Shown: positions 10,358-58,957 of the stretch, in pieces
How the letters are laid out: every line of letters begins with the position of its first letter
Position numbering within the stretch: position 1 is the stretch's first letter
Notes under the pieces: model-generated
What the model saw: the letters and a program-made list of their open reading frames with translations, nothing else
What the model was told of the DNA's origin: nothing
Databases searched by the model: none
Position numbers and translations under genes: made by a program
DNA from: Felis catus
Lineage: Eukaryota
Reading direction: 5' to 3'
DNA: 64,000 nucleotides
NCBI RefSeq assembly: GCF_018350175.1
Contig: NC_058368.1
Span: 87,670,001 to 87,734,000 of the forward strand

Positions 10358-10814
10358 ATCACAGGCAGGATGGAAGTGGCTTCTGGTGGTGGTTCGAGTA
10401 TTACCTTGCCTCCATGTACATGCCTTGTTTGATTCCATGTCCACACTTGTGTCTAGGCTACTCTCTCTGCCCACATGCCCTGATTTGACTTTGACCAACC
10501 TTAGGGAGCCCTGGAATCTTTGGCTTCGCCTCAGTGTAGTTCTGTCTGCACCGACCTACCATGGGGTGGGAAGACAGAGGCATCCAGGGTAGACCAGATG
10601 ACTAGGACTTTGTGAGTGTTGGAGAGTGGAGGGGAAGGGGAAATGGGTAGGTAGGAGAGGGGGGGTGGACAGGAAGAAGGTGGGAGAGGAGGGAATGAGC
10701 AAGGCTAGTATTTACAGAGCAACTACTTCATGTCTGGCACTAGGCTCAACATTAAACATATGCCCCAAATTCATTTCAGAAAATCACCCCACAGTGTGTA
10801 ATGATATGGTGTAA

Positions 10815-11203
10815 CAGTCAGCTTGGTCTCTGTAACAAATACCACAGACTGGGAGGTTTAAACAACGCATTTATTTTTTTCCCAGTCCTGGGAACTGGAA
10901 GCATGAGATCCAGGTGTGGCAGGGCTGGTTCCTCCTGAGGCCTCTCTCCCCTGGCGTGCACATGCCATCTCCTCCCCATGTCCTTACACGGTTGTCCCCT
11001 GTGTGTGTCTATGCCCTGATCCCCTCTTCTATTAAGGACGCCAGTCACATGGGATCAGATGGGATCAGGGCCTACCCTAGTGACTTCCTTTTACCTGAAC
11101 CACCTCTGTAAAGACCCCATCTCCAAATATAGCCCCATTCTGAGGCCCTGGGGGTTGGAGCTTCAACATGTGAACTGGAGGGGACATGATTCAGCCCATA
11201 ATA
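10815..11203 (-). mobile_element. MaLR (MLT1-like) solo LTR in the 3' region of copy A
   Basis: Reverse complement of 59036-59425 with typical MLT1 motifs. Confidence 0.8.
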
Positions 11204-11340
11204 TTTTGTCAGTATTTTACAGGGAAGGAAAGTGGAGATAACACAGGATCATCCAGAAAGGTGCACCCTTGTATGTGATCTAGCTGGGACTTAGAATGGA
11301 TACATCTCCCCCAAATCGGTGACAGGCTGGAGCAGAGAGA

Positions 11341-11938
11341 TCATGGGTCTTGCTGGAGGAGGGTTCCCACCCTGTCCTGTCCCTCACCCTGAGGAGGCCC
11401 CAAGGCCTCTGGGGGCTGCCATTCTGAACAGATGGTTAGGAGGCTGGGGTCGTGTGTCCAGAGGCAGAAGAATGGCCTCAGGGGTGCCGAGAAGGACAGT
11501 CCAGAGAACGCGTAGACGAAGGATCCATTGCCCATGCTGTAGAAGGAGATTCTGCCTGCATCACAGTCCAGGAAAACGCCCACACGATGCAGGGGCTCCG
11601 AAGGGTGCAGGCGAACTCTTGGGAAGGCAAGTGCCCAGAACCTCTCCTTGTACAGATCCAGGGCCCAGAGTCCGTGCTGGGGGGCCTTGAGGATCCTTCC
11701 CGTCCAATCCAAGCTCTCCAGACACATGCCCAGGTTCCGGGTCTTCCTGTGCCCCACCTGGACCTCCCAGTAATACCCCCCAGCTGAGAACTGCTCCCGA
11801 CCCAGCACACAGGGGTCCCTGTTGAATCTGCTGGGTTGTCGGGCAGCTCTTGTTCAAAGAACAGCCGCCTCACAGTCTTCCTGTCCTCAGAGAGAGCGAG
11901 CTTGGGGCTTGCAGTGTCAGGGTCCAGGGATGGGCTCA
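11341..11938 (-). pseudogene. BTNL10: Copy A B30.2/PRYSPRY exon, frameshifted
   Basis: SLDPDTASPKL in one frame and YYWEVQV...HRVGVFLD...LRPFF in another; gacaacccagc vs aacgcccccagc in copy B. Confidence 0.88.
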
Positions 11939-12367
11939 CTGCGGGAAGAGGAGAGGATCGGCTTTAGGGGTTAGGGTCCCCACCTATGCTCTTGCATGGA
12001 GGTGGGACCATGCCTCCTTGGGAGTCCCTGTGTGTCCCCATTCTGTCCAGGACCCTGTGCACACAGGCCATCCCAGAGCAGTGGAAGTGGCTCCCTGTGT
12101 GTCACCATTCTCTGTCCAGGACCCTGTGCACACGCCCCACACTTCCCACTGAGACAGTGTCCTGGCTCTGCACTCTCTGTGTTAACAGTGTCCCCCACAG
12201 TGACTGTGCCTCAGAAGATCTGGCTCTCTTGCTGCCCAGGCTCTGCAGCCTGTCTGTCCCTCAGGTAGTAAACAGGAGCTAAGGTCCCTCAGGGCAGCTA
12301 AACTTGGTGTTTACAGCCATGGAACCAGCATTTAGCACAGCATTTCTGCACTCTGCAATAGAATGGA

Positions 12368-12715
12368 TCACACATGTGTGCACACACGTGCACATACACA
12401 TGAGTCCATGTGCATACACATGATGTATGTGCACACATACACACAAACACACACATGCACATAGATGTACAACATGCAAACACAGCACCCGTATGCACAT
12501 GCACATACACACAGAAACACGAGTGCATGTGCATACAAGGCACACATGAACACACATGCACAAATGCACATACTTGTACACACTGCATACACACATGAAA
12601 ACACATGCACATATGTGCATAACATGCACACACAGATGAGCACATAAATGTACAACATGCACACGTAACACCCACACATACATGCACTCACACATGCGCC
12701 CATAAACACACATGC
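12368..12715. repeat. Degenerate (CA/TG)n tract between the micro-exons of copy A
   Basis: cacacatgca-type alternating purine-pyrimidine repeats. Confidence 0.9.
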
Positions 12716-13518
12716 AGGGAGCAGGCCCTTCCAGCCCCCAGCATGGTCCTCACCATAGATGATGTCCTCTGGCCAGCCTGAAATGAAACAGAAAGATGTG
12801 AAACTGTAGGGTTTGCACTGACCAGATGGGGCGAAAGCTCATGTTCTGTGAAGCTAAGTCAAAACAGGATGTAATGAGCTCTCGCAGGGACCCTGTAAAG
12901 GAAGAGCAAATATCCCTTCTTCAGTGCCCAAAAAACAATCCAGGTCACTGTATTCCTAGGGAAAGGTTTTGTGGGGCGTAGCCTAATGGCCCAGCCTTCC
13001 CATGTCTGTCATAAAGACACATCTCTGACCTGTTCCCCAGATCGGGGCCTGACAGCTATGAGCAAGGACACAGGAGGCAGGGAGGAGAGCAGACAGGCGA
13101 GTGGAATGATCCATACTGATGATGATCCCCGCGCTCACAACAAGATCCTCTCAGGTGACAGGCTTGCTGCTGTATTTGTTGCTTGAGCATTTTCAGGATG
13201 TTGTCATCACCCTCGACTGATAGACTTTCCCAGGTTCAAGCTCACATCTGTCTCCACAGCAGAGACCCGCCAGTCTTCCCCAAGTCACCCAGTGAAGAGC
13301 AGCCAAGCACCTCTTAGTGATGGAGGATCTCACTGGGCATATGGTAGGTGGGCAGTCCCTGAGCTGGGGCCTGGGCAGGTCTCTCCCATTCCTCCTGGGC
13401 TTGAGGGTACACAAAGGAGGGACTTCATGCTGGGCTCTGCACGAGTGCCCTGGCTGGAAGGAGCACGTCTGTCCCACTGGGGCCTGCTTACCTTGGGACA
13501 GCTGTTCCTCTTCTCTGT

Positions 13519-13682
13519 TCAGTCTCTCTTCTTCCAGCTGCACCCTATTCCTGTTCCTCTGACGTTTCCAGAAAAGACAGGTGGCTCCTGCCACAAGACA
13601 GCTGCTGCAAGCCCCACCACAATGAGGATCACAGGCACCACTGCCCTCCATGCCATTGATGGGAAATTTTTGGGCACCTGGC
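13519..13682 (-). CDS. BTNL10: Copy A TM exon up to the premature stop (GQVPKNFPSMAWRAVVPVILIVVGLAAAVLWQEPPVFSGNVRGTGIGCSWKKRD*)
   Basis: Acceptor ctcttttag. Insertion gtcttgtggca relative to copy B shifts the frame; the original frame (ATCLFWKRQR...EEQLSQG) is still visible. Confidence 0.85.
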
Positions 13683-13849
13683 CTAAAAGAGAGTTTGGGG
13701 AGGCAAGAATACCAGGGTAAGAGAGCACCTGTGTTCTTAGGGCACACAAGCCACAGGGTTCATGGGTCAGGGGGCAGGTGCTTGTGAACTAACCTGACAT
13801 GACCTGAAAACATGTGTGTGCCTTTGTACAGACAGACATGGACACACAG

Positions 13850-14700
13850 GAGAGAGATGGTAGACAAATGGCAAAAGGTTACATACTGAGTGGGTCTGCA
13901 TTCTGTGTATCATTCCTGCAAATTTTCTGAAACTTGAGGTTGTTTAGAAGGAAAATTTTATACAGAGTGAAACTTGGAAGCCCCCAGGTGTCCTTCAGAA
14001 TGTGAATGCATAAACAGGCTGTGGTTCATCCAGACAAGGGAATACTGTTTACTGCCAATACGAAAGGAGCTATCCGTGCAGCCACTGTGGAGAAGATGAT
14101 GGACGTTCCCCCCCAAAATAAAAATAGAACTACCACATCAATCCACTCCTGGGTATTAATCCAAAGAAAATAAAAATATTAACTGAGAAAGATAATGCAC
14201 CCCTACATTTATTGCAGTGTTATTTACAATAGTCAAGATATGGAAACAGCCCAAGTGTCCACCAATGGATGAAAGGATAAAGAAAAAAATATGTATTTGT
14301 ACAACGGGATGCTATTCAGCTATAAACAAGAAGGAAATCCAGGCATTTTCTACAATATGGATGCACCTGAGGGCACTTTGCTAAGTGAAGTTAGACAGGG
14401 GAAAATGTATAGAGTCTCACAGATAAGTGAAATCTAAAATGAAACAAAACACCATCCAAACCTCCAGAAAACCAGAAAGCCTAGTTTATAGATGCAGAGA
14501 ACAGATTGGTGGTTTCCAGAGGTGAAAGATCGGGAAGCTAATGGGTGAAGAGGGTCAAAGGTGCAAACTTCCAGTTTAAAATAAGACCCAGGGAGGTGAC
14601 ATACAGCATGGAAACTATAGTTAACTACTGTGTTGTGTAGTTGGAAGCTGACAGAGACTAGATCTCACAAGGTCTCGTCACAAGGAACTATGCGGAGTAT
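13850..14700 (+). mobile_element. Old L1 3' fragments in the IgC-TM intron of copy A (mirrored at ~51700-52550)
   Basis: ttattgcagtgttatttacaatagtcaagatatggaaacagcccaagtgtcc and L1M-type 3' UTR sequence. Confidence 0.75.
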
Positions 14701-14768
14701 TGGATATTAACTACTGACTGTCTGGGGGTGCTCAGAGATCTTGAGGTCGAATGGAGCAGAACACTCAC

Positions 14769-15050
14769 CAGGTAGGTGGCTCTTGGTCTCCATCCTCTTC
14801 TGGAGGAGGGGGTTGGAGATAGAGCAAGAAAGATTCCCCACGTCCCTGTCCCAGACAATCACATTGGACACCACCGCAAAGAGGCCCGTTGTTGGCGACA
14901 CTGTGAGGTTGGTCGTGGAAGGTAGGGTCTGTCCCCTGAAGTCTCTCCACTCCACCTGGGGCTCTGGGTACCAGCCCTCCGAGGTGCACTCTGCCCTGAT
15001 ACCTTCATCCTGGCCAGCTCGCACTTGGATTCTGGGCTCAGAGCCCAGCC
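14769..15050 (-). CDS. BTNL10: Copy A IgC exon (282 nt)
   Basis: GLGSEPRIQV...AECTSEGWYPEPQVEW...LSCSISNPLL, the butyrophilin IgC signature. Confidence 0.93.
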
Positions 15051-15559
15051 CTGTGGGAAGAGACAGGCTTTGCAGCCTCTGCAACCATTACCATTTCTGA
15101 CAGAAAAGCACAGATCCTGAAAATTTCCAGCAGGTATCAGGGTTTTTCAGACTACTTGCTCTGTGTAATATTTATATGCCATATATGCTACCCTCTTCTG
15201 AGAAACCACAGAACAAAACAGAAAAGGCCCAGGAAGATCAAATACCTTTCCTGTATTGCAAAATCAGTGTCTTTTCCTCTCTGAATCTCTTTCTGCCTCT
15301 GTCCTCCCATCCCTACCTCTGCTACCCCTCTCTCTGGGACAGTGGGGGTAACTTTGAAAAGGAACTAGGTGTCCTGAATGTACCTGTCCTTGTGAAACGC
15401 ATTAGTGCATGCTGTGAGATGCACCCAGGCTGCCACAAACACGTTAGCGCCCGCTGTGGGAAGCGCCCAGGCCAGGGTCATAATGGGACGATCTGCAGCT
15501 GGGGGAAAAGGTCTCAGGCAGACCAGGAGAAGGTCAGGAGCCCCAGCAGCAACCCTCAC

Positions 15560-15913
15560 CTGCCACTCTCAGCCACAGGGTGGCCTCTGCAGACCCTGTG
15601 CTCTCTTTAAACTTGCAGTGGAAGGTCCCATTATCGAACACGGTGACGTTGCGTATGGTCAGCACAGCTTGGTCCTGGGCCAGGCCAGCCGTCCAGAAGG
15701 TCGTCCTGCCCTTATACTGCCACATCTGCTCTTCAGGCATGTCCCTGCCTTTCTTGCGCAGGTGCACGGCTGGGGACGGCTCCTTCCTGTACCACCTCAC
15801 CTCCATGTCCTCCGCACTGATATTGAGGGACAGATGGCATTGCAGCTTCACACTTTCCCCCACCATAGCCAGGACCGGTTGGCCGGGACCAGAGACAGAG
15901 AAATCGGCTTTCC
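15560..15913 (-). CDS. BTNL10: Copy A IgV exon (354 nt)
   Basis: GKADFSVSGP...VKLQCHL...MEVRWYR...YKGRTTF...DNGTFHC; canonical IgV Cys/Trp; AG and gtgagg boundaries. Confidence 0.93.
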
Positions 15914-16200
15914 CTTATGTGGTCATAGCAGAAAGCATGGGTTAGGACAGGTGAGAGGAAACCACGGGCCATCCACCCCACCAGGCACAAGGTCCCCCCC
16001 CCCAACCTGTGCCCAGTGTCTTCCCCTGCCCACGCCCAGGGGACACCCACCCACACCCAGGTTCCCCACCACCACCCCATGCTGGTGCCCAGGGTCCCTA
16101 GGGAAGGACTGCTTGGATCAAGTTCAGCCCTCTACTGTGTTCCTGTCCATGCATGGGGTTCCCTCCTAACATGGGGAAGGGACATGGGGAGCTCTCCTAC

Positions 16201-16294
16201 CCTTTGCAGAGAGGCTGTAGGACAGAAGCTTCAGAAGGAGGAAGATGATGGAGCAGCTGGGTGGAAAGATGTCTCGACCTTGTGTGTTTGCCAT
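16201..16294 (-). CDS. BTNL10: Copy A signal peptide exon (MANTQGRDIFPPSCSIIFLLLKLLSYSLSAK)
   Basis: Kozak cagccATGG, hydrophobic core, gtagga donor. Confidence 0.88.
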
Positions 16295-16356
16295 GGCTGC
16301 TGGAGACAGAGAGGCCTGAGCCCCAGACACTGGAGACAGGGCAGGACTGAGTTAAT

Positions 16357-16495
16357 TTCTGTCTCTCTTGGTTTCTGTCTCTGTCTCTCTCTATTTCTCT
16401 GTTTCTCTCTGTACCTGTCTCTGTCTCTGATTCTCTTTCTGTCTCTGTCTCTCTCGGTTTCTGTCTCTGTCTTTCTCCCTCTGTTTCTATCTTTG

Positions 16496-16526
<31 letters not shown>

Positions 16527-17083
16527 ATCCCTGTCTCTCTGTTTCTATCTCTCTCTGTCTCTGTCTCTATTTCTGTCTTTGTCTCTGTCTGTCTCTGTTT
16601 GTGTGTCTCTTTCTCTGTCCATCTCTGTCTTTCCCTGTCTCTGTCTCTGTCCCTCTGTTTCTGTGTCTGTCTCTCTCTGTATCTCAGCCTCTCTTGGTTT
16701 CTATGTCTCTCTCCAACTATGTTTGTCTCTCTCCTTTTTTTTCTGTCTCTGTCACTCTCTGTCTCTGTCTCCCTTTGTTTCTCTCTGTTTCTGTTTCTGT
16801 CTCTGTCTCTCTCTGTTCCTGTCTCTGTCTCTGTCTATCTCTGTCTGTCACCGTCTCTCTTGGTTTCTATCTCTGTCTCTCTCTGTTTCTGTTTCTGTCT
16901 CTGTCTCTGTTTCTGTCTCTGTCTCTCTCTGTTCCAGTCTGTTTGTCTGCTTCTGTTAGTCTCGGTTTCTATCTTTGTGTTTCCCGGCTTCTCTCCCTGT
17001 CTCTCCCTGTTTCTCTCTCTGTCCCTGTCTGTCTCTGTCTCTCTTTCCCTCTCCTACTCTATCTCTCTCTGTCTCTCTTTCTT

Positions 17084-17120
<37 letters not shown>
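16357..17120. repeat. (CT)n/(CTGT)n low-complexity tract upstream of the copy A signal exon
   Basis: Directly visible; mirrors the GA-rich tract at 48955-49950. Confidence 0.95.
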
Positions 17121-20100
17121 TGGTGGGGGATGAGTCAACACTGGGAGGCTAACGGAAGTGAAGGAAACATGGCTAGGGGAGAGAAAGGTCCCTTTTCACT
17201 ATCTTGGCCCCTCTTACTCCTGCACAAGTTGCTTACCCTAGAGACAGAGACACAACAGTGGCCACCTGATCTTGTGTCCACCTACTTGTGGATGACCTTT
17301 CTCTTGTGGTCATGTGTCTGCAAAACACCATGGACACATCCTCCTGTGAACGGGCTCTGTCTCCTCACCTGTTTGTGTAGGAGCCTTGCCCGACCTCTGG
17401 CTGTGCTCTGTCATGGAACATGAGCACGCTGGGAGAGAAAAACCACCCCCTAGTCAGGTGACTCCAAGGCCAGAAGTACCTCTGTCGACCCCCTTACAGC
17501 CCAAGAAAACTCGCAGTTGGAGGAGGGAGCACTCGAGCCAGAGGGCTCCTATACAGACATGGCCTGAGGCCAGCATGCTCCAAAGATTTATATTTATGAA
17601 CTCAGCTTTGAGAACAAGTGTTCTGAACCACATGTGCTGGTCTGGGCAATTCGGCCCAGCACCTCCTCATGCAGGACTGGCATGAGGAGGTATGTTGGCA
17701 CTTGCCCTCATTCTCTTTCGTGTTTTCCTTCCTTTGGTGAAAGCCTCTGGAGTCTCCCTGTCACTCAAGAATAGGGGAGGAGTGGAGAACACAGACATGT
17801 GGATGAGTACCCTTAAAATAGAAAGTACTCACCTTTCCAAGTAGTAGGGCTGTAGGGCTTCCCAGGGAGATTCTGTGGCTTTGAGGGGATCACTTGACTT
17901 CTCCACAAGTTCCAGGAAGGTGTAGAACAAGTCTTCCAGATGTGATAGGAGAGAGCAGCGGCTGAGCTCCCCAGCTTCTGTAGAATCCTAGGACTTTCTG
18001 GAAAAATGACCAACTGTGCCTTTCTGGAAGGTGCAATAGAAAAAATAAATAAACCAAGGGCTTCTTAAAGGGTGTGTTTGACAGAACTGAACACACTGAG
18101 TGTTGGGGAGCAAGGTCCTGGTAGCAGGAGATAAGGAGAGAGAGAAATACCCAGCAAGGAACCCCCGGGGTAGGGATGGCTGTCTGGGCTGGTGCCAGGA
18201 GCCCCTAGGTGGAGACCTGGCTCTTGAGTGCGAGGATCCAGGCCAAGGGCAGAGGCTGGGATACTCAGATAAAGTTTCTGCATTATCAAAACACCTCCAG
18301 TCCTGGACAGGCTGGGCCTGGTCCCTTTGGGAAAGTTTCTCATGTTCAGGTTGAAGTTGGTCAAATTCTAGCATTCACCCCCCACCCCAGACTCCTGTGC
18401 AGGAATTCAGGCCATCTCCTCCTCCATGTCTGGGGCCATGACAATCTTTCCTCACTGGGGACCTGACTTGGGCTGGGCTCAGAACACTCAGCCCCATTAT
18501 CTCTTGTGTGAGTAAGACACTGGCCTGAACCCTATCTGTTCTTCCCTCCTGTTGACCCAAAAGTCTGCACATTTTCTGGGAGAGTTTTGGAGGGAAAAAA
18601 ACAGTTAGGGAAAGTTTGCGTCCCTCCTGGAGATGGGATATTTGGTTGAATTCAGATTTTTATGGACTGAAGATTTGTGTCCCCTTCCCAAATCTGTGCT
18701 CACACAGGGACTGATGCTGCCAACCCACACCGTCCTCTGTGTTCCTATCAGGAGAGCGAACTATTTGGTAATCAAGCTGCTCCCCTGTTCTATATAAATA
18801 CGAAGAGTTATGCTGCCACTCATTTTCATCTCCCTGTGCATTGCTTTAAGCGGATAATGACATCATCTAAAACCCAGGTTGGGTATACTTCTGAGTCAGG
18901 ATGGAGGACTGGGGATGTGACATTAGAGGAAGCACCTAAGGGGTTTGGCAGCCGTGATGGAATGGATCCTGAAGGTGGGCGCACCTGGACAAGTGGTCCT
19001 TGGTGAGCATGCACATGGTCTGTAGCCTTTTACCTGAGTGGGAAGAGCTCCTGGAGATGGCACCAAGGCCCTCAGGGACAGTGATAAACCCCAGATGGGG
19101 ACGGGCTCCCTGAGTGCAGGTGGAAGGAAGGACACAGGGGGCCCCAGACTTCTACAGTCCCATTGCCATGGCATGTCCAGGACAGGTACATGCAGACAGA
19201 CAGAGAGCAGATTGATGGTTGTCAGGCAGTGGGGATGAGGGGGGAAATATAACCACAAAGCAGTTCGGGGGTTTGTTTTGGCACGAGACCCAGGTGGTGG
19301 CCGTACAAGCCTGTGTCAGTGTGCTGCATGTCACTGGATCGTTCACTTCAATGTGGTTGACTTTGTGTTATGGGAATGTCACCGCAACTGGAAAAAAAGA
19401 AAAAAACAAATGGAAAACACATAAGGTAGAAGGGAAATCTCCAAGTTGCAGGCTCCCGGGCGCCCTCTGCAGGGATGCGTGTGCAGTCCAGCACCCTGCT
19501 CCAGGGATGCACCAAGACCCAGTGAGCTTGCGTGGTCCACCCGCACCTGCACCTGCCTTGAGCCTGGCTCCCTGCAGGATCTGTCCTACAGAGGGCAGAG
19601 GCCCTAGGAGAGCTGAAGGGCCCCTCCCCGTCCCCCCCCCCACCCCGTGCCCACCTGCCCCTGCCACAAGCCAGCCTCTTGCTTCCTGCCCTGGGCTGTG
19701 TTCACAGAGTCTTTTTGGGTCCTCCCAGCATTTAAGCTAGTGTGTGCCCTCCCCCCACCCCATCACGGGTACTTGGCTCAGCTCTCCAAGTACACTGGGA
19801 CTTTATGGCTTGGCCGCAGGCACTGCCTGGGCCACCCCCTTGCAGGACCTACCCCCTCCTCTGGCTCCCTGGCCTCCAGTCCTACAATGGGAGGGTTCCT
19901 TCTGCACATTAGGTCCCTTGTCATGTGATCTCCGAGAGGTCCTTGCGTCTCCTGCACTGACCTCAGTGAACAAGAGGGCAGTGCCTCCACCAGGAAGATC
20001 CTCGGGGACTCCTCCAGGGAAAGAAGCAGTGGGGGGGGGGAGGGGTGGCGTCCCTTAGGCGGACGGTGCAGGTGCCATGTGGTTGGGGCGGGGAGGAAAG

Positions 20101-20139
20101 GTGAGATGTCCTCAGAGAAATACCGCGGTGTCAATGCAA

Positions 20140-20460
20140 TGAAGCGCTTGGGTCATCCAGTTCCTGGTGGTAGTTCTTATCAACATACCTCTGCATGGGG
20201 CCTTTGTGTCCCCGGGAAGGCAAGTGCTTGGGTCATGCAGTGCCCGGTCGTAGTTCTTTCCCACAACCCTCAGCCTGGGGCCTTTGTGGTTCTGGGTAGG
20301 CAAGGGCTTGGGTCATCCAGTGCCTGGTGGTTGTCCTTACCCACACACCTCTGTGTGGGGTCTTTGTGGCCTTGGGAAGGCAAGGACTTGGGTCATCCAG
20401 TGCCTGGTGGTGGTTCTTACCCACAACCCTCTGTGTGGGCCTTTGTGGTCCTGGGAAGGC
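20140..20460. repeat. ~80-bp minisatellite, ~4 units
   Basis: cttgggtcatccagtgcctggtgg... recurs at ~20147, 20228, 20308 and 20387. Confidence 0.85.
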
Positions 20461-20549
20461 TCTCATGAGTATAGGGAGGAAACTCTCCCTTACTTCCTAT
20501 GGAGCCAGGGTGGGGTGGGGGGGTGGAGTGGAGAGGGGCAGTTAATGTC

Positions 20550-20932
20550 TGGCTTCCCTCCCCTTCCCTCGCCCTCCTCCTCCTCCTGGTGCTCACCTCT
20601 CCAACCTCCCCTCCCCCTCCTCCTCTTCATTTCCCAATCCTCCTCTCCTTACTCCTCCACCTCCCCACCCCTACTCCCCTCCCTGTCCTCCTCCCTCATT
20701 CTCTGCCCTCCCCTCCTCCTCCTCTTCTCCCCTCCCTCATGTCTCCTCCCCTCTCATTCCTCCCCTCCCCTCCTACTCTCCATACTCCTTCTCCTCCCTT
20801 CCCTTCCTCCACCTCTTCATTCTACTCCCCCTCTTTCTCCCTATTCTCCCCTCCCCCTCTTCCCTCACTTCCCCCTCCTACCTTCCCTGTCCTCATCTGC
20901 TTCTCTCTCCTCCCTTCACCTCCTCTCTTTCC
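20550..20932. repeat. Polypyrimidine (CCT/CT) tract at the inner edge of the left arm
   Basis: Homologous to the purine tract at 44860-45240. Confidence 0.9.
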
Positions 20933-23390
20933 TTTTTTTTTGATATGAAATTTATTGTCGTATTGGTTTCCATACAACACCCAGTGCTCATCCCAACAGG
21001 TGCTCTCCTCAATATCCATCACCCACCCTCCCCTCACTCCCACCCCCCATCAACCCTCATTTTGTTCTCACTTTTTAAGAGTCTCTTATGGTTTGGCTCC
21101 CTCCTTCTCTAACTTTTTTTTCCTTCCCCTCCCCCATGGTCTTCTGTTAAGTTTCTCAGGATCCACATAACAGTGAAAACTTATGGTATCTTTTTCTCTG
21201 TATGACTTCTTTCACTTAGCATAACATTCTCCAGTTCAATCCACGTTGCTACAAAAGGACATATTTCATTCTTTCTCATTGCCATGTAGTATTCCATTGT
21301 GTATATAAACCACATTTTCTTTATCCACTCATCAGTTGATGGACATTGAGGCTCTATCCATAATTTGGCTATTGTTGAAGATGCTGCTATAAACATTGGG
21401 GTACAAGTGCCTTATGCCTCAGCACTCCTGTATCCCTTGGGTGAATTCCTAGCAGTGCTACTGCTGGGTCATAGGGTAGATCTGTTTTTAATTTTTGGAC
21501 GAACATCCACACTGTTTTCCAGAGCTGCTGCACCAGTTTGCATTCCCACCAAAAATGCAGGAGGGTTCCAATTTCTCCACATCTTTGTCAGGATGTATAG
21601 TCTCCTGATTTTGTTCATTTTAGCCACTCTGACTGGCATGAGGTGATACCTCGGTGTGGTTTTGATTTGTATTTCCCTGATGAGGAGCAACGTTGAGCAT
21701 CTTTTCATGAGCCTGTTGGCCATCTGAATGTCTTCTTTAGAGAAATGTCTATTCGTGTGTTCTACCCATTTCTTCACTGGATTATTTGTTTTTCGGGTGT
21801 GGAGTTTGGTGAGTTCTTTATAGATTTTGGTTGCTAGCCCTTTGTCCGATATGCAAATATCTTTTGCAAATATCTTTTACCATTCCGTCGGTTGCCTTTT
21901 AGTTTTATTGATTGTTTCCTTTGCAGTGCAGAACCTTTTAATCTTCATGAGGTCCCAATCATTCATTTTTGCTTTTAATTCCCTCGCCTTTGGGGATGTG
22001 TAAATAAGAAAGTGCTGCAGCTGAGGTCAGAGAGGTTTTTTCCTGCTTTCTCGTCTAAGGTTTTGATGGTTTCCTGTCTCACATTCAGATCCTTTATCCA
22101 TTTTGAGTTTGTTTTTGTGAATGGTGTAAGAAAGTGGTCTAGTTTCATTCTTCTGCATGTTGCTGTCCAGTTCTCCCAGCACCATTTGTTAAAGAGATTG
22201 TCTTTTTCCATTGGATCTTCTTTCCTGCTTTGTCAAAGATTAGTTGGCCATACTTTTGTGGGTCCAATTATGGGGTCTCTATTCTGTTCCATTGGTCTAT
22301 GTGTCTGTTTTTGTGCCAAAACCATGCTGTCTTGATGGTTACAGCCTTGTAGTAGAGTCTCAAGTCTGGCATTGTGATGCCTCCTGCTTTGGTCTTCTTC
22401 TTCAAAATTACTTTGGCTATTCAGGCTTTTTGTGGTTCCATACAAATTTTAGGATTGCTAGTTCCAGCTTAGAGAAGAATGCTGGTGCAATTTTGATTGG
22501 GATTGCATTGAATGTGTAGATAGCTTTGGGTAGTATTCACATTTTAACAATATTTATTCTTCCAATCCGTGAGCATGGAATGTTTTTTCCATTTCTTTAT
22601 ATCTTCTTCAAGTTCCTTCCTAAGCTTTCTATAGTTTTCAGCAGACAGAACTTCTACATCTTTGGTTAGGTTTATTCCTAGGTATTTTATGATTCTTGTT
22701 GCAATTGTGAATGGAATCGTTTTGTTTTTTTTTTTTTTTTGGCTTTCTGTTGCTTCCTTGTTAGTGTATGAGAATGCAACTGATTTCTGTACATTGATTT
22801 TGTATCCTGCGACTTTGCTGAATTCACATATCAGTTCTAGCAGACTTTTGGTGGAGTCTATCAGTTTTTCCATGTATAATATCATGTCATCTGCAAAAAG
22901 TGAAAGCTTAACTTCATCGTTGTCAATTTTTATGCATTTGATTTCCTTTTGTTGTCTGATTGTTGATGCTAGAACTTCCAACACTATGTTAAACAACAGC
23001 GGTGAGAGTGGATATCCTTGTCATGTTCTGATCTCAGGGAGAAAGCTCTCAGTTTTTCCCCATGGAGGATGATATTAGCTGTGGGCTTTTCATAAATGAC
23101 TTTTATGATGCTTAAGTATGTTCCTTCTATCCCTACTTTCTTGAGGATTTTTATTAAGAGAGGATGCTGAATTTTGTCAAATGCTTTTTCTGCATCGATT
23201 GATAGGATCATATGGTTCTTTTCTTTTGTTTTATTAATGTGATGTATCACACTGATTGATTTGCAAATGTTGAACCAGCCCTGCAGCCCAGGAATGAATC
23301 CCACTTGATCATGGTGAATAATTCTTTTTATATGCTGTTGAATTCGATTTGCTAGTATCTTATGGAGAATTTTTGCATCCATATTCATCT
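20933..23390 (-). mobile_element. 5'-truncated young L1 (ORF2 RT to poly(A))
   Basis: Minus ORFs 22984-23403, 22544-22996 and 21975-22211; T-tail at ~20933-20941. Confidence 0.96.
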
Positions 23391-45500: not shown

Positions 45501-45554
45501 AGAACATAAACTCCCCTGGAGGAGGGAAAAGAGTTTCCTCCCTATTTCACTAGA

Positions 45555-50010: not shown

Positions 50011-50104
50011 ATGGCAAACACACAAGGTCGAGACATCTTTCCACCCAGCTGCTCCATCATCTTCCTCCTCCTGCAGCTTCTGTCCTGCAGCCTCTCTGCA
50101 AACG
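50011..50104 (+). CDS. BTNL10: Copy B signal exon (MANTQGRDIFPPSCSIIFLLLQLLSCSLSAN)
   Basis: cagccATGG Kozak; donor gtagga. Confidence 0.9.
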
Positions 50105-53100
50105 GTAGGAGAACTCTCCCCGCCCTCCCATGAGCCATGTTAGGAGGGAGCCTGTGCATGGACAGGAACACAGTAGGGGGCTAAACTTGATCCAAGCAGT
50201 CCTTCCCTGGGGACCCTGGACAAGGGCATGGGGTGTTGTTGAAGAACCTGCGTGTGGGTGGGTGTCCCCTGGGCGTGGGCAGGGGAAGACACTGGGCACA
50301 GGCTGGGGGGGGGCGGGGCGGGGACCCTGTGCCCAGTGGGGGGGGGGGGATGGCCCATGGTCTCCTCTCACCTGGCCTAACCCATGCTTTCTGCTATGAC
50401 CTCATAAGGGAAAGCCGATTTCTCTGTCTCTGGTCCTGGCCAACGGGTCCTGGCTATGGTGGGGGAAAGTGTGAAGCTGCGATGCCATCTGTCCCTCAAT
50501 ATCAGTGTGAAGGACATGGAGGTGAGGTGGTACAGGGAGGAGCTGTCCCCAGCTGTGCACCTGCGCAAGAAAGGCAAAGATGTGCCAGAAGAGCAGATGT
50601 GGCAGTACGAGGGCAGGACGACCTTCCTGATGTCCGGGCTGGCCCAAGACCAAGCTGTTCTGACCATACACAATGTCACGGTGTTCGATAACGGGACCTT
50701 CCACTGCAAGTTCAAAGATGGCATGGCGTCTGCGGAGACCACCCTGTGGCTAAGGGTGGCAGGTAAGGGTCGCCACTAGGACCTCTGGTCTCCCCTAGCA
50801 CTTATCGTCCAGCTGCAGATCGTCTGATCATGGCCCAAGCCTGAACGCATCCCACGGCATGCACTAACACATATGCAGTGGCCTGGGCCTGTCCCACAGC
50901 TTGCGCTAACATGTTTGGGCCTGGCCTGAGTGCGTCCCACAGCGTGCTCTAATGTGTTTGTGTCGGTCTACACGTGTCCCACAAAATGCGATAATGCACT
51001 AGAACAAGCAGGTTCTGGGCGCCTGGCTCATTTTCTAAGTCGGCTTCTGTTACCCACACTGACCCCAGAAAGAAAGGAAAGGAGGTATGGAGAGAAGGAA
51101 AGAGGCAGAAAGAGATACAGAGAGAAACAGGAAAAGACACCAATTTTGCAATACAGGAAAGGTATTTGATCTTCCTGGGCCTTTTCTGTTTTGTTCTGTG
51201 GTTTCTCAGAAGAGGGTAGCATATATGGCATATAAATATTACACAGAGCAAGTAGTCTGAAAAACCCTGATACCTGCTGGAAATTTTCAGGATCTGTGCT
51301 TTTCTGTCAGAAATGGTAATGGTTGCAGAGGCTGCAAAGCCTGTCTCTTCCCACAGGGCTGGGCTCTGAGCCCAGAATCCAAGTGCGAGCTGGCCAGGAT
51401 GAAGGTATCAGGGCAGAGTGCACCTCGGAGGGCTGGTACCCAGAGCCCCAGGTGGAGTGGAGAGACTTCAGGGGACAGACCCTACCTTCCACGACCAACC
51501 TCACAGTGTCGCCAACAACGGGCCTCTTTGCGGTGGTGTCCAATGTGACTGTCTGGGACAGGGACGTGGGGAACCTCTCTTGCTCTCTCTCCAACCCCCT
51601 CCTCCAGGAGAGGATGGAGGCCAAGATCTGCCTACCTGGTGAGTGTTCTGCTCCATCCAGGCCTCAAGAGCTCTGAGCACCCCAGACAGTCAGTAGTTAA
51701 TATCCAATACTCCGCATAGTTCCTTGTGACGAGACCTTGTGAGATCTAGTCTCTGTCAGCTTCCAACTATACAACACAGTAGTTAACTATAGTTTCCATG
51801 CTGTATGTCACCTCCCTGGGTCTTATTTTAAACTGGAAGTTTGCACCTTTGACCCTCTTCACCCATTAGCTTCCCGATCTTTCACCTCTGGAAACCACCA
51901 ATCTGTTCTCTGCATCTATAAACTAGGCTTTCTGGTTTTCTGGAGGTTTGGATGGTGTTTTGTTTCATTTTAGATTTCACTTATCTGTGAGACTCTATAC
52001 ATTTTCCCCTGTCTAACTTCACTTAGCAAAGTGCCCTCAGGTGCATCCATATTGTAGAAAATGCCTGGATTTCCTTCTTGTTTATAGCTGAATAGCATCC
52101 CGTTGTACAAATACATATTTTTTTCTTTATCCTTTCATCCATTGGTGGACACTTGGGCTGTTTCCATATCTTGACTATTGTAAATAACACTGCAATAAAT
52201 GTAGGGGTGCATTATCTTTCTCAGTTAATATTTTTATTTTCTTTGGATTAATACCCAGGAGTGGATTGATGTGGTAGTTCTATTTTTATTTTGGGGGGGA
52301 ACGTCCATCATCTTCTCCACAGTGGCTGCACGGATAGCTCCTTTCGTATTGGCAGTAAACAGTATTCCCTTGTCTGGATGAACCACAGCCTGTTTATGCA
52401 TTCACATTCTGAAGGACACCTGGGGGCTTCCAAGTTTCACTCTGTATAAAATTTTCCTTCTAAACAACCTCAAGTTTCAGAAAATTTGCAGGAATGATAC
52501 ACAGAATGCAGACCCACTCAGTATGTAACCTTTTGCCATTTGTCTACCATCTCTCTCCTGTGTGTCCATGTCTGTCTGTACAAAGGCACACACATGTTTT
52601 CAGGTCATGTCAGGTTAGTTCACAAGCACCTGCCCCCTGACCCATGAACCCTGTGGCTTGTGTGCCCTAAGAACACAGGCGCTCTCTTACCTTGGCTTTC
52701 TCGCCTCCCCAGACCCTCTTTTAGCTCAGTTGTCCAGAAGTTTCCCATCAATGGCGTGGAGGACAGTGCTGCCTGTGATCCTCATTGTAGTGGGACTTGT
52801 AGCAACTGGAGCCACCTGTCTTTTCTGGAAACGTCAGAGGGACAGGGATAGGGTACAGCTGGAAGAAGAGAAACTGTACAGAGAAGAGGAGCAGCTGTCC
52901 CAAGGTAAGCAGGCCCCAGTGGGACAGACGTGCTCCTTCCAGCCAGGGCACTCGTGCAGAGCCCAGCATGAAGTCCCTCCTTTGTGTACCCTCAAGCACA
53001 GGAGGAATGGGAGAGACCTGCCCAGGCCCCAGCTCAGGGACTGCCCACCTACCATATGCCCAGTGAGATCCTCCATCACTAAGAGGTGCTTGGCTGCTCT

Positions 53101-56100
53101 TCACTGGGTGACTTGGGGAAGACTGGCGGGTCTCTGCTGTGGAGACAGATGTGAGCTTGAACCTGGGAAAGTCTATCAGTCGAGGGCGATGACAACATCC
53201 TGAAAATGCTCAAGCAACAAATACAGCAGCAAGCCTGTCACCTGAGAGGATCTTGTTGTGAGCGCGGGGATCATCATCAGTATGGATCATTCCACTCGCC
53301 TGTCTGCTCTCCTCCCTGCCTCCTGTGTCCTTGCTCATAGCTGTCAGGCCCCGATCTGGGGAACAGGTCAGAGATGTGTCTTTATGACAGACATGGGAAG
53401 GCTGGGCCATCAGGCTACGCCCCACAAAACCTTTCCCTAGGAATACAGTGACCTGGATTGTTTTTTGGGCACTGAAGAAGGGATATTTGCTCTTCCTTTA
53501 CAGGGTCCCTGCGAGAGCTCATTACATCCTGTTTTGACTTAGCTTCACAGAACATGAGCTTTCGCCCCATCTGGTCAGTGCAACCCTACAGTTTCACATC
53601 TTTCTGTTTCATTTCAGGCTGGCCAGAAGACGTCATCTATGGTGAGGACTATGTAAGGGCTGGAAGCGTCTGCTCCCTGAATGTTTGTTTATGTGTGCAC
53701 ACGTGTGTGTGCAGTGTGCATGTATGTGTGTATGTGTGAGTGCTGTGTGTGCATGGTATACATTTATGTGTTCACCTGTGTGCCATATGCACATTTGTTA
53801 GTGTGTGCACATGCACATGTGTGGTGCTTTGTGCACATAAGTACACATGTGTTCTCGTGTGTGCAGTGTGTGCATGTGTATTTATGTGTGCATGTGTATG
53901 CACATGCACTTGTGTCTGTGCATATATGTGCATGTGTGTGCACGCATGTGTTTGTATGTGCACGTGCACTTGTGGACACGTATTGCACACATGTGTGCAC
54001 ATGTACTTGTGTGTGTATGCATTGCACACATGTACTTGTGTGTGTGCCCACGTGCACATGTGTATTTGTGTGTGCACATGTACTCATGTGTGTGTGTATG
54101 CATGTGCATGTATGTGTGTGTTCTCCTTTCTATTCCAGGGTGCAGAAATGCTGTGCTAAATGCTGGTTCTATGGCTGTAAACACCAAGTTTTGCTGCCCT
54201 GAGAGACCTTAGCTCCTGTTTACTGCCTGAGGGACAGACAGGCTGCAGAGCGCGGGCAGCGAGAGAGCTAGCTCTTCCAAGGAACAGCCACTGTGGGGGA
54301 CACTGTTAGCACAGAGAGTGCAGAGCCAGTGCCTTTCTGCCCCAGGGCACCATATAGGTGGGAAGCATGGGGGGAGAGTCTGGCTGTGGAGAGGGACCCC
54401 CAAGGACAGGAGGGGCAGTACTGCGAGCCACGAGCTGGGCAGATGAAAGCAGGAAGGGGATCTGGGAACACCTGTCCCACCACAGCCACATGGTGAGGGC
54501 CCAGGAAGAGACAGACAGAAGCCAGTCTCCATTCATTCATGCAGTTACAACCATGACCAGATATCTTCTGTGCAAGCAACTGGCCTCCATTAGTTAATGT
54601 ACAGCTTCCTCCTGTCCTCATGGAGCATAGAGTCTATATGGGGATGTGAGCCACAAGTCAGCATTTGTTTTTTTAATTATTAAATCTGGAATAACTGTGA
54701 TAGGAAAGAGCCAGAATACTAGGAGGATGGCCAGGAGCATGTTCAAGTGGGATGTCCAGACCCCTGGGAATGGTGGGGTGATGGGGTGGGTGATGGCAAG
54801 ACCACAGCTATACGAGGAGGGGAGAACTCGCCCCTGTGGCAGGGAGAGTGGGGTCTGTGATGTGTGACAGCTTGGCATGTGGAAGAGGTACCAACAGGGC
54901 AGGAAGGCTTGTGTGTGTCCCTGCAGAGCCTGGGAGGCTGAGGTAGAGGCCTGGACTTTACATGAAGCACCGTGCAATGTGAGTGAGAACCTGTAAGCAG
55001 GGGAGCAGCACTGATGGAGGAGAGGATACAGCCCCGAGATGGGTCCTGGGGCCACAAGTAGCACAGTCCAGAAGGGGCAAGGCAGAGGGAGCAGCCCAAG
55101 GTGACCCCCAGCTGCATAAGTCTCTGGCCCTTCGGGCTCCATCTAACAGAAGGTTTGGGGCAGATTTGGGCCAAATAAGTGAAAATCACCATGGACCTCC
55201 TAAGACTGAGCTGTTCTCACACATCCTGCTAAGGACGTCAGATGAATCATTGGATATGCGAGTCTGGAACTCTCAGGAGAAATCGGGACTAGAGACAGGA
55301 ATTGGGGTCCATGGCAAATATCTGGTATAACTGAACGCGTGAGTGCTACATTTTTTGCTACACCTAAAATTATTCTTTAAAAATTTCTCTTTGGAAAAGA
55401 ATTAAGATTTTTTAAAAAGGGAAGATACAGGGAAACAAGAAAGATCCAAGATCTAGCGTTGGAGAACCCTGGTATTTGAAGGTTAGAGCAGTGGTTGTGG
55501 GAGGGCCAAGGGAGACTTCACCATGGAAATGTGCAGGTGCAGTGTGTTGAAGGAGCATCAACTTTCGTGCACCTGAGAAGTAGAGTCAGGTCAACCCGGG
55601 AAAATGGCCCAGAAAAACTGGCAAGCATGGTACAAAGAGAGGCGTCTCCTGTGGAGAGAACTGGGAGGGAGGTCTCAAATTTATTGCCTGTGTAGTTGAG
55701 CTAAGACTTGGTGAGTGGGGAATGGGAAGGTTCTGTTTGTGTTTGCTGTGGTTTTACTTTGAGGTCCGTGGCAGGAGAGCATGCCTGTTGCCTAAAAGGA
55801 ACCATGTGGTGTGAAGATGCCTGAAGCCTGAAGGGAGGAAGAAAACCAGTAAGAGAATGATGATGCAGAGAAGATAGTCAGCAGCTGTGGATGGGATGGA
55901 CCACAGGTCTACACTGTGGCCAGGTGGGGGGTGGTGTGCAAGGGTCCAGCACATACGTGATGGACAGCACAGGAGAAGATTCACAGCCAGGTGTGGGTGG
56001 TGTGCAAGAGGAATCAGTGTACACAGGACACAGACTGAGATCCAGGGACAGGTGTGGGTGGTGTTCAAGAGAAGCCAGTGTACCAGGACACAGGATGAGC

Positions 56101-58957
56101 TCCAGGGACAGGTGTCAGTGTGTGCAAGAGGAGTCAGTGCACAAGGACACAGGATGAGCCCCAGGGACAGGTGCGGGTGGTGTGCAAGAGGAGTCAGCGC
56201 AGAAGGACACAGGATGAGCCCCAGATACAGGTATGGGTGGTGTGCAAGAGGAATCAGTGGACAAGGACACAGGATGAGCTCTAGGGACAGGTATGGGTGT
56301 GTACAAGAGGAGTTAGCACACAAGGACACAGGCAGTGCTCCAGGGACAGGTGTGGGTGGTGTACAAGAGGAATCAGTGGACAAGGACACAGGGTGAGCTC
56401 CAGGGACAGGTGTGAGTGTGTACAAGAGGAGTTAACACACAAGGACACAGGCAGTGCTCCAGGGACAGGTGTGGGTGGTGTGCAAGAGGAGTCAGCACAC
56501 AGAACACAGGATGAGTTCCAGGGACAGGTGTGGGTGGTGTGCCAAAGGAATCAGTTCAGAAGGACACAGGATGAGCCCCAGGGACAGGTGTGGGTGGTGT
56601 ACAAGAGGAGTCAGCACACAAGGACACAGGATGAGCTCCAGGGACAGGTGTGGGTGTGTACAAGAGGAGTCAGCACACAAGGACACAGGATGAGCTCCAG
56701 TGACAGGTGTGGGTGACAGGTGTGCAAGAGGAATCAGTGCCCAAGGGCACAGGTGGTTCTCCACAGTCAGGTGTGCTGTGGTGTGCAAGAAGTCACTATA
56801 GAATATTTTTGTATCAATGTCAATTGTATGGTTTTGATCCTATTACTGTGGGTTATATGAGATGCTATCATGGGCATATTGTGTATGGTATTTTGCAACC
56901 TCTTTGTAAGTCTCAAACTGTTTTTTGACATGAATATTTTTTAATTATGAGGGAATTTGGAATAGAAGGAGCCGGGCCCATTGTTCAGCTAGTGAGTCCA
57001 TGTTTGGCCATCATAGATATGAACATGGGTGGGCTCAATCTGCATGGCCCAGACTCTACAGGGAAAGGGTTTGCATGGAGCAGAGGGAGAAGACTTCAGG
57101 AAGCAGCAATGAGAAATCGGGGAGAACATTTAGTCTTTGCTGGAAAGTGAAAGGGAGCAGGGTTCCTTCCAGAAGGAAGTAGAGACCGGGGAGAAAGTTG
57201 TGGTTCTGTTAGGAGGAGAGCGTGTGTGCTGTCCAGCTGACAGGGATGGATGGTCAGGAAACATGAGTGTCTGCGGCATCGTATGCAGACCCCAGCAACC
57301 AGCAGCATGCCTACTGAATGGGCAAGGGTGGACACCAGCCAGGAGGTTTCTGTTGTCGTGAAGGTGCCTGCACAGGCAGCTGGGGCTCCCAGCTGATCCC
57401 CACCTTCCCTGCCTCTCAGGTGTAGACAGACCCTCCCCCAGGTGACATGATGAGGGCCTGAGGGCTCTGAGAAGGATGGTGGGACAGGAGAGAAGGGATC
57501 TGTTTTGGAAGGTGTTCATCTCAGTTTGTGAGGCTGCTAAGGTGTCTCTCAGGGTTTTCCAGATGGGATCTTCCCTTCAGTGGTTGACCCCAGAGCTGTC
57601 CAATGGCATCAATGCACCTGTGACCTCATCTCATGTCACCCTGTCTCTTCACGTGTCCTCCTATGTCTTTCTCTCTATCTCTGTCTCCCTGTGTCTTTCT
57701 CTGTGTCTCTCTTCCTCTGTCTCTGTCTGTGTCCATACCTTTCTCAATCTCCCTCTATCTCTCTTCCTGTGTCTCCCTATGTGTATCTCTCCTTGTTCTC
57801 CTTGTCTCTCTGTCTCTGTCTCTCTCTTTCCTTGCCTCTCTCTGTCTCTGTCTCTCTATCTCTCTCTCTATGTCTACCTGTGTCTGTCTGTCCCTGTCTC
57901 TGTCTCTCACGTGCACGCCCACATAGCCCCCCCACACACAAGTGCATATGCACACACACATGCACATCCACATCCATCCTGACACACGGGGCCCTGGGAG
58001 CAATGCCTATCTCACAGTGTGCCCCCCTGTCCCCTCATAGGAATCCCCCCTGGCTCTCCCTGGCTCCCCCTGGAGCCGCCTCTGCTGCCTTGGGATGGCC
58101 TGTTTGCACAGGATCCTGGACAGAGAAAGGGACTCACAGGGAGCCGCCTCCGCTGCTCTGGGATGGCCTGTGTGCACAGGGTCCTGGACAGAGAACGGGG
58201 ACGCACAGGGATTCCCAGGGAGACATGGTTCCACCTCCATTCAGGAGCACAGGTTGGGGACCCCAACCCCTAAACCTGATCCTCTCCTCTTCCCGCAGTG
58301 AGCCCATCCCTGGACCCTGACACTGCAAGCCCCAAGCTCGCTCTCTCTGAGGACAGGAAGACTGTGAGGCGGCTGTTCTTTGAACAAGAGCTGCCCAACG
58401 CCCCCAGCAGATTCGACCGGGACCCCTGTGTGCTGGGCCTGGAGCAGTTCTCAGCTGGGAGGTATTACTGGGAGGTCCAGGTGGGGCACAGGAAGGCCTG
58501 GAACCTGGGCGTGTGTCTGGAGAGCTTGGATCGGAAGGGAAGGATCCCCAAGTCCCCTCAGCACGGACTCTGGGCCCTGGAGCTGTACAAGGAGGGGTTC
58601 TGGGCACTTGCCTTCCCAAGAGTTCGCCTGCACCTTTCGGAGCCCCTGCATCGTGTGGGCGTTTTCCTGGACTGTGATGCAGGCAGAATCTCCTTCTACA
58701 GCGTGAGCAATGGATCCCTCATCTACGCGTTCTCTGGACTGTCCTTCTCGGCACCCCTGAGGCCATTCTTCTGCCTCTGGACACATGACCCCAGCCCCCT
58801 GACCATCTGCTCAGAACGGCAGCCCCCAGAGGCCTTGGGGCCTCCTCAGGGTGAGGGACAGGACAGGTGGGAACCCTCCTCCAGCAAGACCCATGATCTC
58901 TCTGCTCCAGCCTGTCACCAATTTGGGGGAGATGTATCCATTCTAAGTCCCAGCTAG
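50011..58957 (+). CDS. BTNL10: Butyrophilin-like protein copy B (BTNL10-like), intact; 7 coding exons, 1620 nt, 539 aa: signal-IgV-IgC-TM-juxtamembrane-B30.2
   Basis: join(50011-50104,50409-50762,51357-51638,52725-52904,53618-53641,54139-54165,58299-58957). All introns GT-AG and phase 1; frame open. Motifs KADF, WQY.GRTTF, EPRIQV, DFRGQ and FWKRQR match human BTNL10 as I recall it. Confidence 0.9.
50409..50762 (+). CDS. BTNL10: Copy B IgV exon
   Basis: GKADFSVSGPGQRVLAMVGESVKLRCHL...DNGTFHCKF...LWLRVA; donor gtaagg. Confidence 0.94.
51357..51638 (+). CDS. BTNL10: Copy B IgC exon
   Basis: GLGSEPRIQV...CTSEGWYPEPQVEW...LSCSLSNPLL; acceptor cccacag, donor gtgagt. Confidence 0.94.
52725..52904 (+). 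CDS. BTNL10: Copy B transmembrane exon
   Basis: AWRTVLPVILIVVGLVATGATCLFWKRQRDRDRVQLEEEKLYREEEQLSQ; donor gtaagc. Confidence 0.92.
53618..53641 (+). CDS. BTNL10: Copy B 24-nt micro-exon (GWPEDVIY)
   Basis: tttctgtttcatttcag acceptor, gtgagg donor, phase 1-1; present in copy A at 12754-12777. Confidence 0.65.
53680..54120. repeat. Degenerate (TG/CA)n tract between the micro-exons of copy B
   Basis: Directly visible. Confidence 0.9.
54139..54165 (+). CDS. BTNL10: Copy B 27-nt pre-B30.2 micro-exon (GCRNAVLNA)
   Basis: Acceptor tattccag, weak gttcta donor; a 27-nt phase 1-1 exon is typical of BTN genes; present in copy A at 12326-12352. Confidence 0.7.
55985..56790. repeat. ~60-bp minisatellite, ~13 units, in the last intron of copy B
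   Basis: Unit caggtgtgggtggtgtgcaagaggagtcagcacacaaggacacaggatgagctccaggga. Confidence 0.93.
57640..57910. repeat. CT-rich low-complexity tract
   Basis: Directly visible. Confidence 0.85.
58299..58957 (+). CDS. BTNL10: Copy B B30.2/PRYSPRY exon plus C-terminal tail
   Basis: LDPDTA, RFDRDPCVLG, GRYYWEV, WNLGVC, RVGVFLD, ISFY and LRPFF motifs; acceptor tcccgcag; TAG at 58955-58957. Confidence 0.95.

Follow-up and report, generated by a model that had tools for sequence, protein, structure and literature searches.

Divergence peaks on the exons of the red/green opsin genes and of RHCE/RHD have been read as selection against gene conversion (PMC3924837), and in Leptodactylus the R and S copies of ATP1A1, which go back to one ancestral duplication, are described as keeping 12 fixed amino acid differences against conversion across the clade (10.1101/2020.08.04.234435). 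Between bovine CEACAM32 and the CEACAM1 paralogs, conversion is reported in the leader and introns, with the Ig exons spared (PMC7042247). Tracts of gene conversion have a mean length of ~250 bp, and the process slows with divergence of the copies (10.1101/135152). Here we describe a new case of this known process, a head-to-head pair of the butyrophilin gene BTNL10 in the domestic cat (Felis catus), found in a 64,000-nt stretch of one genome (NC_058368.1; hereafter the window, whose positions are used throughout). One copy (B) is intact and the other (A) is predicted to be truncated after its transmembrane (TM) helix. Conversion has homogenised most of the IgC exon, and the IgV exons, which encode the ligand-facing domains, have remained distinct across the cat family.

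The felid pair is like the human opsin and RH genes (PMC3924837) in combining old duplicates, converted introns and divergence peaks, but both opsins are functional and their selected sites are known, whereas here one copy is truncated and the islands of divergence include introns and indels. Its 11 fixed differences recall the 12 of ATP1A1; those are scattered and functionally tested, while ours fall in one domain inside a 1-kb diverged block. Unlike CEACAM32, the felid genes are butyrophilins, their IgC is converted, and IgV alone escapes. Within the butyrophilins, BTN3A2 is without a B30.2 domain, binds BTN3A1 via IgC and has candidate KKxx/KxK endoplasmic reticulum (ER) motifs (PMC5798315), and the IgV domains of the hominoid BTN3A genes are reported to be homogenised (PMC6790196). 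BTN3A1/BTN3A2 and the felid genes are both butyrophilin pairs in concerted evolution, with one member lacking B30.2 (PMC5798315, PMC6790196, PMC11969061). They differ in that IgV, homogenised in BTN3A, is kept distinct in felid BTNL10, and in that BTN3A2 retains the juxtamembrane region which is frameshifted in copy A; the two pairs also belong to different subfamilies and are of independent origin. BTNL10 has no established function, and the human gene is called a pseudogene (PMC11969061). Both cat genes already exist as RefSeq or UniRef models, so the pair itself is previously annotated; we found no paper on a felid BTNL10 duplication in the open-access literature, judged by titles, term counts and abstract openings, with supplements not covered.

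Perfect tracts and divergence islands between the arms

Self-BLAST and arm-to-arm alignment place an inverted duplication in the window, with arms at ~10367-20930 (left, minus strand) and ~44770-59766 (right, plus strand), each carrying one BTNL10 gene whose 5' end points inward: copy A at 16294-11280 (-) and copy B at 50011-58957 (+). A search of the cat genome returned two IgV matches only, these two copies. The original prediction, made from the sequence alone, was that introns of the pair are nearly identical and exons diverged. This describes intron 3, between the IgC and TM exons (10 mismatches in 1073 aligned bases, 0.9%), intron 4, after the TM exon (3/713, 0.4%), and the upstream DNA, where perfect runs reach 532, 356, 277, 240 and 195 bp. 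It does not describe intron 1 (33/286, 11.5%), the last part of intron 5 (20/195, 10.3%) or the 5' part of intron 2 (85/284, 29.9%, above every exon, with 20 mismatches in the first 64 bases). Pooled, exons differ at 101/1604 bases (6.3%) and non-repeat introns at 175/3007 (5.8%), an equality (p 0.52) that rules out a global inversion of exon and intron divergence, even though inside the span 12754..16294 the figures are 7.6% for exons and 5.1% for introns. The pattern is a patchy mosaic of perfect tracts and islands.

The exon differences themselves were largely as predicted by eye. The IgV exons differ at 37/354 bases, with 17 amino acid differences from Met48 to the exon end; the IgC exons at 9/282, all in the last third, so that 64 identical leading codons are followed by 6 amino acid differences; the TM exons at 20/192 plus an 11-nt indel; and the B30.2 exons at 29/658, concentrated in the 5' part (21 of the 27 differences counted). 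The outer flank (10367..10597, partner 59533-59766), which had been noted as more diverged than the rest, differs at 28/234 positions (12%) and is ended by a 105-bp indel.

Perfect tracts of 909, 532, 406, 356, 277 and 276 bp, among others, alternate with these differences (tracts and islands, as properties of the alignment, are given without strand). The longest fills most of intron 3 (13728..14636, partner 51771-52679), and the 406-bp tract takes in the last part of intron 2 together with the leading two thirds of IgC (14859..15264, partner 51143-51548); a further region, upstream of the genes, is mostly identical with small islands (17104..19460, partner ~46630-48972). The main island (15265..16235, partner 50070-51142) extends over the end of the signal-peptide exon, intron 1, IgV and the 5' part of intron 2 with an ~80-bp indel. 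Its maximum, which falls between the FG-loop codons and the indel, covers the 3' two thirds of IgV, where the longest identical run is 20 nt, and the beginning of intron 2. The TM island (13505..13727, partner 52680-52891; 212 bp) is centred on an 11-nt insertion in A, and smaller islands occupy the end of IgC (14728..14858, partner 51549-51679) and the 5' part of B30.2 (11603..11840, partner 58397-58635). All six of the six coding exons touch an island, and islands take up 67% of exon bases vs 39% of intron bases. Five islands also lie in the upstream DNA, outside the coding exons, and divergence peaks include introns 1, 2 and 5, with indels. By circular-shift tests (below), the claimed coincidence of differences with exons survives as an association that is suggestive only.

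IgV follows the paralog and IgC follows the lineage

We compared 10 A-type and 9 B-type felid proteins, covering 18/30 members of the main sequence cluster. The model P0030, which has no 5' IgV, stands for jaguar A in the trees and was replaced by P0080 in later IgV counts; P0056 (a 49-aa fragment) and redundant isoforms were excluded. In the tree of the IgV core, A and B each occupy one side of a branch (supports 96/93 for A and 94/89 for B; stems 0.088 and 0.085), and both together are separated from the outgroups hyena and meerkat with 96/95. In the IgC tree A and B are intermixed by lineage, with 4-5 label changes, and the A and B of tiger pair with each other, as do those of clouded leopard; the two copies differ there by 1 residue in tiger and 0 in clouded leopard. 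Fixed A/B differences number 11 in IgV and 0 in IgC, and an A-type IgV core is absent from all 9 B proteins. The IgC residues that mark lineages are common to both copies: R181 and G219 in all big cats, L201/I223 in tiger and clouded leopard, and Q160 in clouded leopard only. Grouping of converted regions by species is seen here at the protein level, for IgC; introns were compared in the cat only.

The 11 fixed differences in IgV, against none in an IgC whose lineage residues occur in both copies, mean that the duplication predates the split of big and small cats, which lies ~11 million years back. Canids, mustelids, seals, bears, meerkat and hyena have one BTNL10 copy type among the matches, and felids two. 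The protein trees show the head-to-head duplication to belong on the felid stem, later than the divergence from hyena and meerkat, and the same comparisons show non-allelic gene conversion between the arms to be patchy and continuing in an old duplicate, as had been proposed. Homogenisation of the 909-bp tract dates to within ~0.4-1.7 million years if the rate is taken as 4 to 1 x 10^-9 per site per year. Synonymous sites of the IgV core differ at 17/56 (95% range 0.19-0.44). With divergence of ~30% in the IgV core and at the beginning of intron 2, the 12% of the outer flank can only be a lower bound on age.

The difference at the end of IgC had been attributed to selection as well. We ruled this out: the island is absent in the big cats, with the 0-1 differences of clouded leopard and tiger. 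As a separate observation, the IgC of B (51357-51638) differs between cat and big cats at 8-11/93 residues and its IgV and B30.2 at only 1-4% (p 0.004); mustelid BTNL10 domains differ by ~0-5%. The fast IgC may reflect a conversion load from a relaxed copy. In B's IgV (50409-50762), several new residues arose on the felid stem (branch 0.085), with almost no change since (0-0.012), a pattern suggestive of a new, fixed ligand of B.

Truncation of copy A

The frame of copy A is open across the signal peptide (exon 16201..16294, minus strand as for all A features), IgV (15560..15913, paralog-specific in felids), IgC (14769..15050, first 64 codons the same as in B) and the TM helix. The acceptor AG of B's TM exon reads AA in A (13695-13696), and an in-frame AG lies 12 nt downstream; starting the TM exon there (13492..13682) gives a predicted product identical to UniRef model P0005. 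An 11-nt insertion (13589..13599) shifts the frame at the end of the helix, which stays hydrophobic over 19 residues (2.44 vs 2.50), and an A-specific TGA (13519..13521) ends the frame after KKRD. The predicted product, which hinges on the predicted TM-exon acceptor, is a membrane protein without B30.2 and with KKRD at its C-terminus. The 24-nt juxtamembrane exon (12754..12777) lies past the stop, and the B30.2 exon (11280..11938) is out of frame with an extra 1-nt deletion near 11836.

The insertion, scored from proteins in the other species and seen directly as a frameshift in cat only, is indicated in 8/8 informative felid A sequences vs 0/10 B TM exons. Four A models (P0053, P0058, P0030 and P0077) read the start of the TM exon in a shifted frame and are in frame again past the insertion; three further A models are flagged low quality and carry a net +3 residues, and two skip the TM exon. 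All eight informative A sequences also have the stop-creating substitution, which reads Y299N in B's frame. Residues of A type in the TM island have entered the B of fishing cat and bobcat (2/10) without the insertion, so the island is permeable, and B-type patches of B30.2 are found in the A of fishing cat, Iriomote cat and Geoffroy's cat. No A copy has lost the insertion, though A's B30.2 has been partly replaced in some lineages; the counts are small. KKRD was spotted post hoc, a KKxx ending being the outcome of 1/23 one-step stop gains in the shifted tail, and it is read here in the cat, the proteins of other species being modelled in B's frame. Among 29 candidates, A's shifted tail was present only in the cat model and a partial clouded leopard match.

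The comparison shows the out-of-frame B30.2 of A to be decaying and, at times, overwritten by B sequence, as far as the protein models reveal it. This removes the idea that selection on both copies keeps the B30.2 island. Positive selection in the 5' part of B30.2 also found no support (ratio of non-synonymous to synonymous differences per site, pN/pS, 1.86; p 0.43, not significant).

Constraint on copy A and competing explanations

The original prediction argued that A is not neutral, with IgV differences preserved by selection and dN/dS on IgV as a check. Across IgV codons 64-149, A and B differ at 17 of 56 synonymous and 17 of 202 non-synonymous sites (pN/pS 0.28, p 8e-5), which signifies purifying selection and sets aside positive selection between A and B in IgV; a dN/dS above 1 is not supported. 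Support for a non-neutral A, where there is some, comes from this ratio and from the placement of changes. Had A been neutral from the start, ~36 non-synonymous differences would be expected vs the 17 observed (p 1e-4). None of the 24 changes in the A crown of the IgV tree falls on the 35 positions that are invariant in 18 outgroups (30% expected, p 2e-4, and the same with CpG weighting), and with an invariant set drawn from carnivores only the count is 4/24 (p 0.016). Whether A's open reading frame is intact in a given species was not counted as evidence, since protein databases would lack the broken copies.

Several observations weigh against a constrained A. Neutrality from the start is not rejected at the lower pS limit of 0.19 (p 0.24). 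The out-of-frame B30.2 of A likewise under-hits invariant sites (4/31, p 0.05-0.11), and the contrast between IgV and B30.2 in this respect is not significant (p 0.12). Divergence of A between cat and big cats is 6.8-11.1% in IgV, about that of its out-of-frame B30.2 (8.1-11.8%), against 2.6-4.3% for B's IgV, and IgV changes number 24 in A vs 8 in B, a rate ~3x that of B. No A protein of leopard, snow leopard, bobcat or Iberian lynx was among the 18/30 cluster members, and with 18/30 covered, broken A copies may be hidden. The A stop lies 51 nt ahead of the last exon junction, at the edge of the usual rule for nonsense-mediated decay. As to the islands themselves, those of IgV and TM have indels, and not only exons, at their centres, and islands also occur upstream. 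When the exon mask is shifted circularly, the overlap in bases is not significant (p 0.11), and contact with all six exons has p 0.06. An A IgV with a conserved core and a fast-changing surface would fit these numbers best; a recently relaxed gene would also be compatible with them.

The explanation we favour, at about even confidence, is that selection together with indel barriers maintains the islands, and that A is still constrained and would make a folded membrane protein without B30.2. Conversion in introns 3 and 4, in the upstream DNA and in most of IgC would be harmless, and the arms there would stay identical. In IgV both copies would be under purifying selection with differing sequence, converted alleles being removed, and accumulated divergence and indels may by now slow conversion as well. 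In the TM exon, transfer of the frameshift from A to B would ruin B and is very probably rejected for that reason; repair of A from B appears in no lineage examined, which may reflect retention of A's truncation. In B30.2, selection would protect B alone, including against the degenerate B30.2 sites. The predicted A product would be a folded, membrane-anchored IgV-IgC protein with a variable surface and a conserved core.

The main rival, possible if rather unlikely, is that A has been a pseudogene, perhaps a transcribed one, since the TM frameshift that preceded the felid radiation, the islands being relics of an earlier selection on both copies and now held only by selection on B and by indel and mismatch barriers. 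An IgV rate equal to that of the out-of-frame B30.2 would be expected of such a gene, as would the lost acceptor AG, the B30.2 frameshift, the 3.7-kb gap relative to B and the low-quality flags on several A models in other species; identical runs of at most 20 nt in the 3' two thirds of IgV fit the slowing of conversion between diverging duplicates (10.1101/135152), and a fast B IgC (8-11/93) beside a slow B IgV and B30.2 (p 0.004) is as expected with a relaxed donor. Against it stand the 0/24 crown changes at invariant IgV sites, as gene-model filters remove stops and not missense changes of this kind, and the fact that the less constrained B30.2 island has been overwritten in some A lineages but the TM insertion and the IgV core in none. 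That the islands need no selection at all, with repeats and indels blocking conversion in patches that overlap exons by chance, seems to us very improbable. Equal overall divergence of exons and introns, the mask-shift tests and the indel or adjoining simple repeat at most islands are in its favour, but transfer of the frameshift from A to B must harm B, interleaved sites show the pN/pS of 0.28, and short tracts cross the TM island, never with the insertion. Still less credible is that the identical tracts are collapsed or mis-polished assembly: intron identity comes from one genome, but fixed differences interrupt the tracts at intervals of a few hundred bases, and independent felid assemblies show lineage residues common to A and B with other differences retained.

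A different role for A, as a secreted IgV-IgC form made by read-through into intron 3 or as a donor of IgV to full-length hybrids in place of a membrane partner, we consider improbable. A models of tiger, jaguar, lynx and cat stop just past IgC (P0006, P0080, P0055 and P0004), but a read-through model exists for B also (P0078), and this may be a habit of gene prediction. Two protein records, P0064 and P0076, run from A into B, but each comes from one short contig, the switch in P0076 adjoins a 20-nt shared run, as in an assembly chimera, all 9 B proteins lack an A-type IgV core, and no hybrid locus was recovered. P0064 has an A IgV followed by the intron-2 frame of B (50780-50826), with no identical run of at least 8 nt at the switch, and P0076 switches within IgV; they are either real recombinant alleles or assembly chimeras. 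A metagenome scan for P0064-like loci gave 63 pattern matches, with 0 confirmed.

We also looked for A sequence words in sequencing runs. At least half of 38 sampled k-mer words of A IgV are present in 18 of the 24 runs listed, and four runs hold 0.90 of them; two runs recorded as RNA hold 0.84 and 0.68, and for most of the runs RNA is only a guess. Exons alone account for 0.898 of the query, which the 0.90 of the four runs matches, and B shares only 2.5% of the query's words. The figures are compatible with spliced A RNA but, no junctions having been seen, are a hint only.

Copy B and the surrounding sequence

The six exons of B, all on the plus strand, splice to a 534-aa open frame that is 100% identical to the domestic-cat BTNL10 protein P0001: signal peptide (50011..50104), IgV (50409..50762), IgC (51357..51638), TM (52713..52904), a 24-nt juxtamembrane exon (53618..53641) and an intact B30.2 (PRY-SPRY) exon (58299..58957). 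Pfam recognises V-set, C2-set_3, PRY and SPRY domains, in the order IgV, IgC, TM, B30.2 with the frame intact. Orthology with BTNL10 of other mammals was assigned by database name, domain order and tree; the other protein matches carry the names BTNL10 or BTN1A1-like, and the tree agrees with BTNL10 orthology. Several BTNL10-like forms in the horse family (P0024, P0026-P0029) suggest an independent expansion there.

Ahead of the signal-peptide exon, the AG that P0005 implies for A (16329-16334) reads AA in B (49971-49976), so B must use an AG close by, and 5' splicing of the two copies may differ. Likely upstream 5' exons of the database models (P0005, P0030) lie at 17284-17340 and ~17835 for A and at 48740-48795 and ~48250 for B; perfect tracts contain or adjoin them, which makes shared promoters probable. 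A 3.7-kb segment of intron 5 (54340..58090, plus strand) is present in B only and contains a minisatellite of ~60-bp units at 55918-56795. L1-like inverted segments, 89-93% identical, occur at 20928-23389 and 26478-28930, at the inner end of the left arm and in the spacer, and also at 3-2550; they may be linked to the origin of the duplication. A Pfam scan of 11 long open reading frames outside both genes gave 1 match, a reverse transcriptase in the spacer, where such a frame lies at 26431-27321. In practice, tracts this similar will be a source of confusion in cat gene models and in the mapping of short reads.

A possible parallel to BTN3A2

The original prediction likened the pair to paired immune receptors, in which one member has a charged TM residue or an immunoreceptor tyrosine-based activation motif (ITAM) and the other an inhibitory motif (ITIM), and in which the ligand-binding domains are homogenised. 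The analogy fails on both counts: A's helix is uncharged and its tail has no tyrosine, B signals through B30.2, and IgV, the part kept different, is the least converted exon.

A comparison with BTN2A1 is also available, since R65, R124, Y126 and E135 of that protein are reported as essential contacts to the T-cell receptor (PMC7083227). At the four equivalent positions of the felid proteins, by a gapless alignment, there are 0/4 fixed A/B differences. Fixed differences at 136-138 and 142 adjoin contact equivalents, in the FG loop and the G strand, and positions 132 and 141 (equivalent to Y126 and E135) vary among species in A and are invariant in 9/9 B proteins. Complex prediction of the A and B ectodomains without alignments scored 0.00, which is no evidence either way.

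The shortened copy A may act as a partner protein. More specifically, and with clear doubt, we propose that felids independently evolved an arrangement like that of BTN3A2: A would be a selected membrane protein without B30.2 and with a KKxx tail, B would be co-expressed from the near-identical upstream region, and the two would pair through an IgC matched by conversion, A either holding B in the ER or adding a second IgV surface.

The conversion mosaic marks the parts that selection would be protecting, namely the IgV core, the FG loop and the membrane-proximal switch, and makes function testable. What makes the pair interesting above all is that the truncation of A is felid-wide and that A may have converged on BTN3A2. 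Should A be a functional partner that lacks B30.2, the division of labour between BTN3A1 and BTN3A2 would have arisen twice in mammals; a dead A would make the locus a clean case in which conversion from a pseudogene speeds up change in the IgC of its parent.

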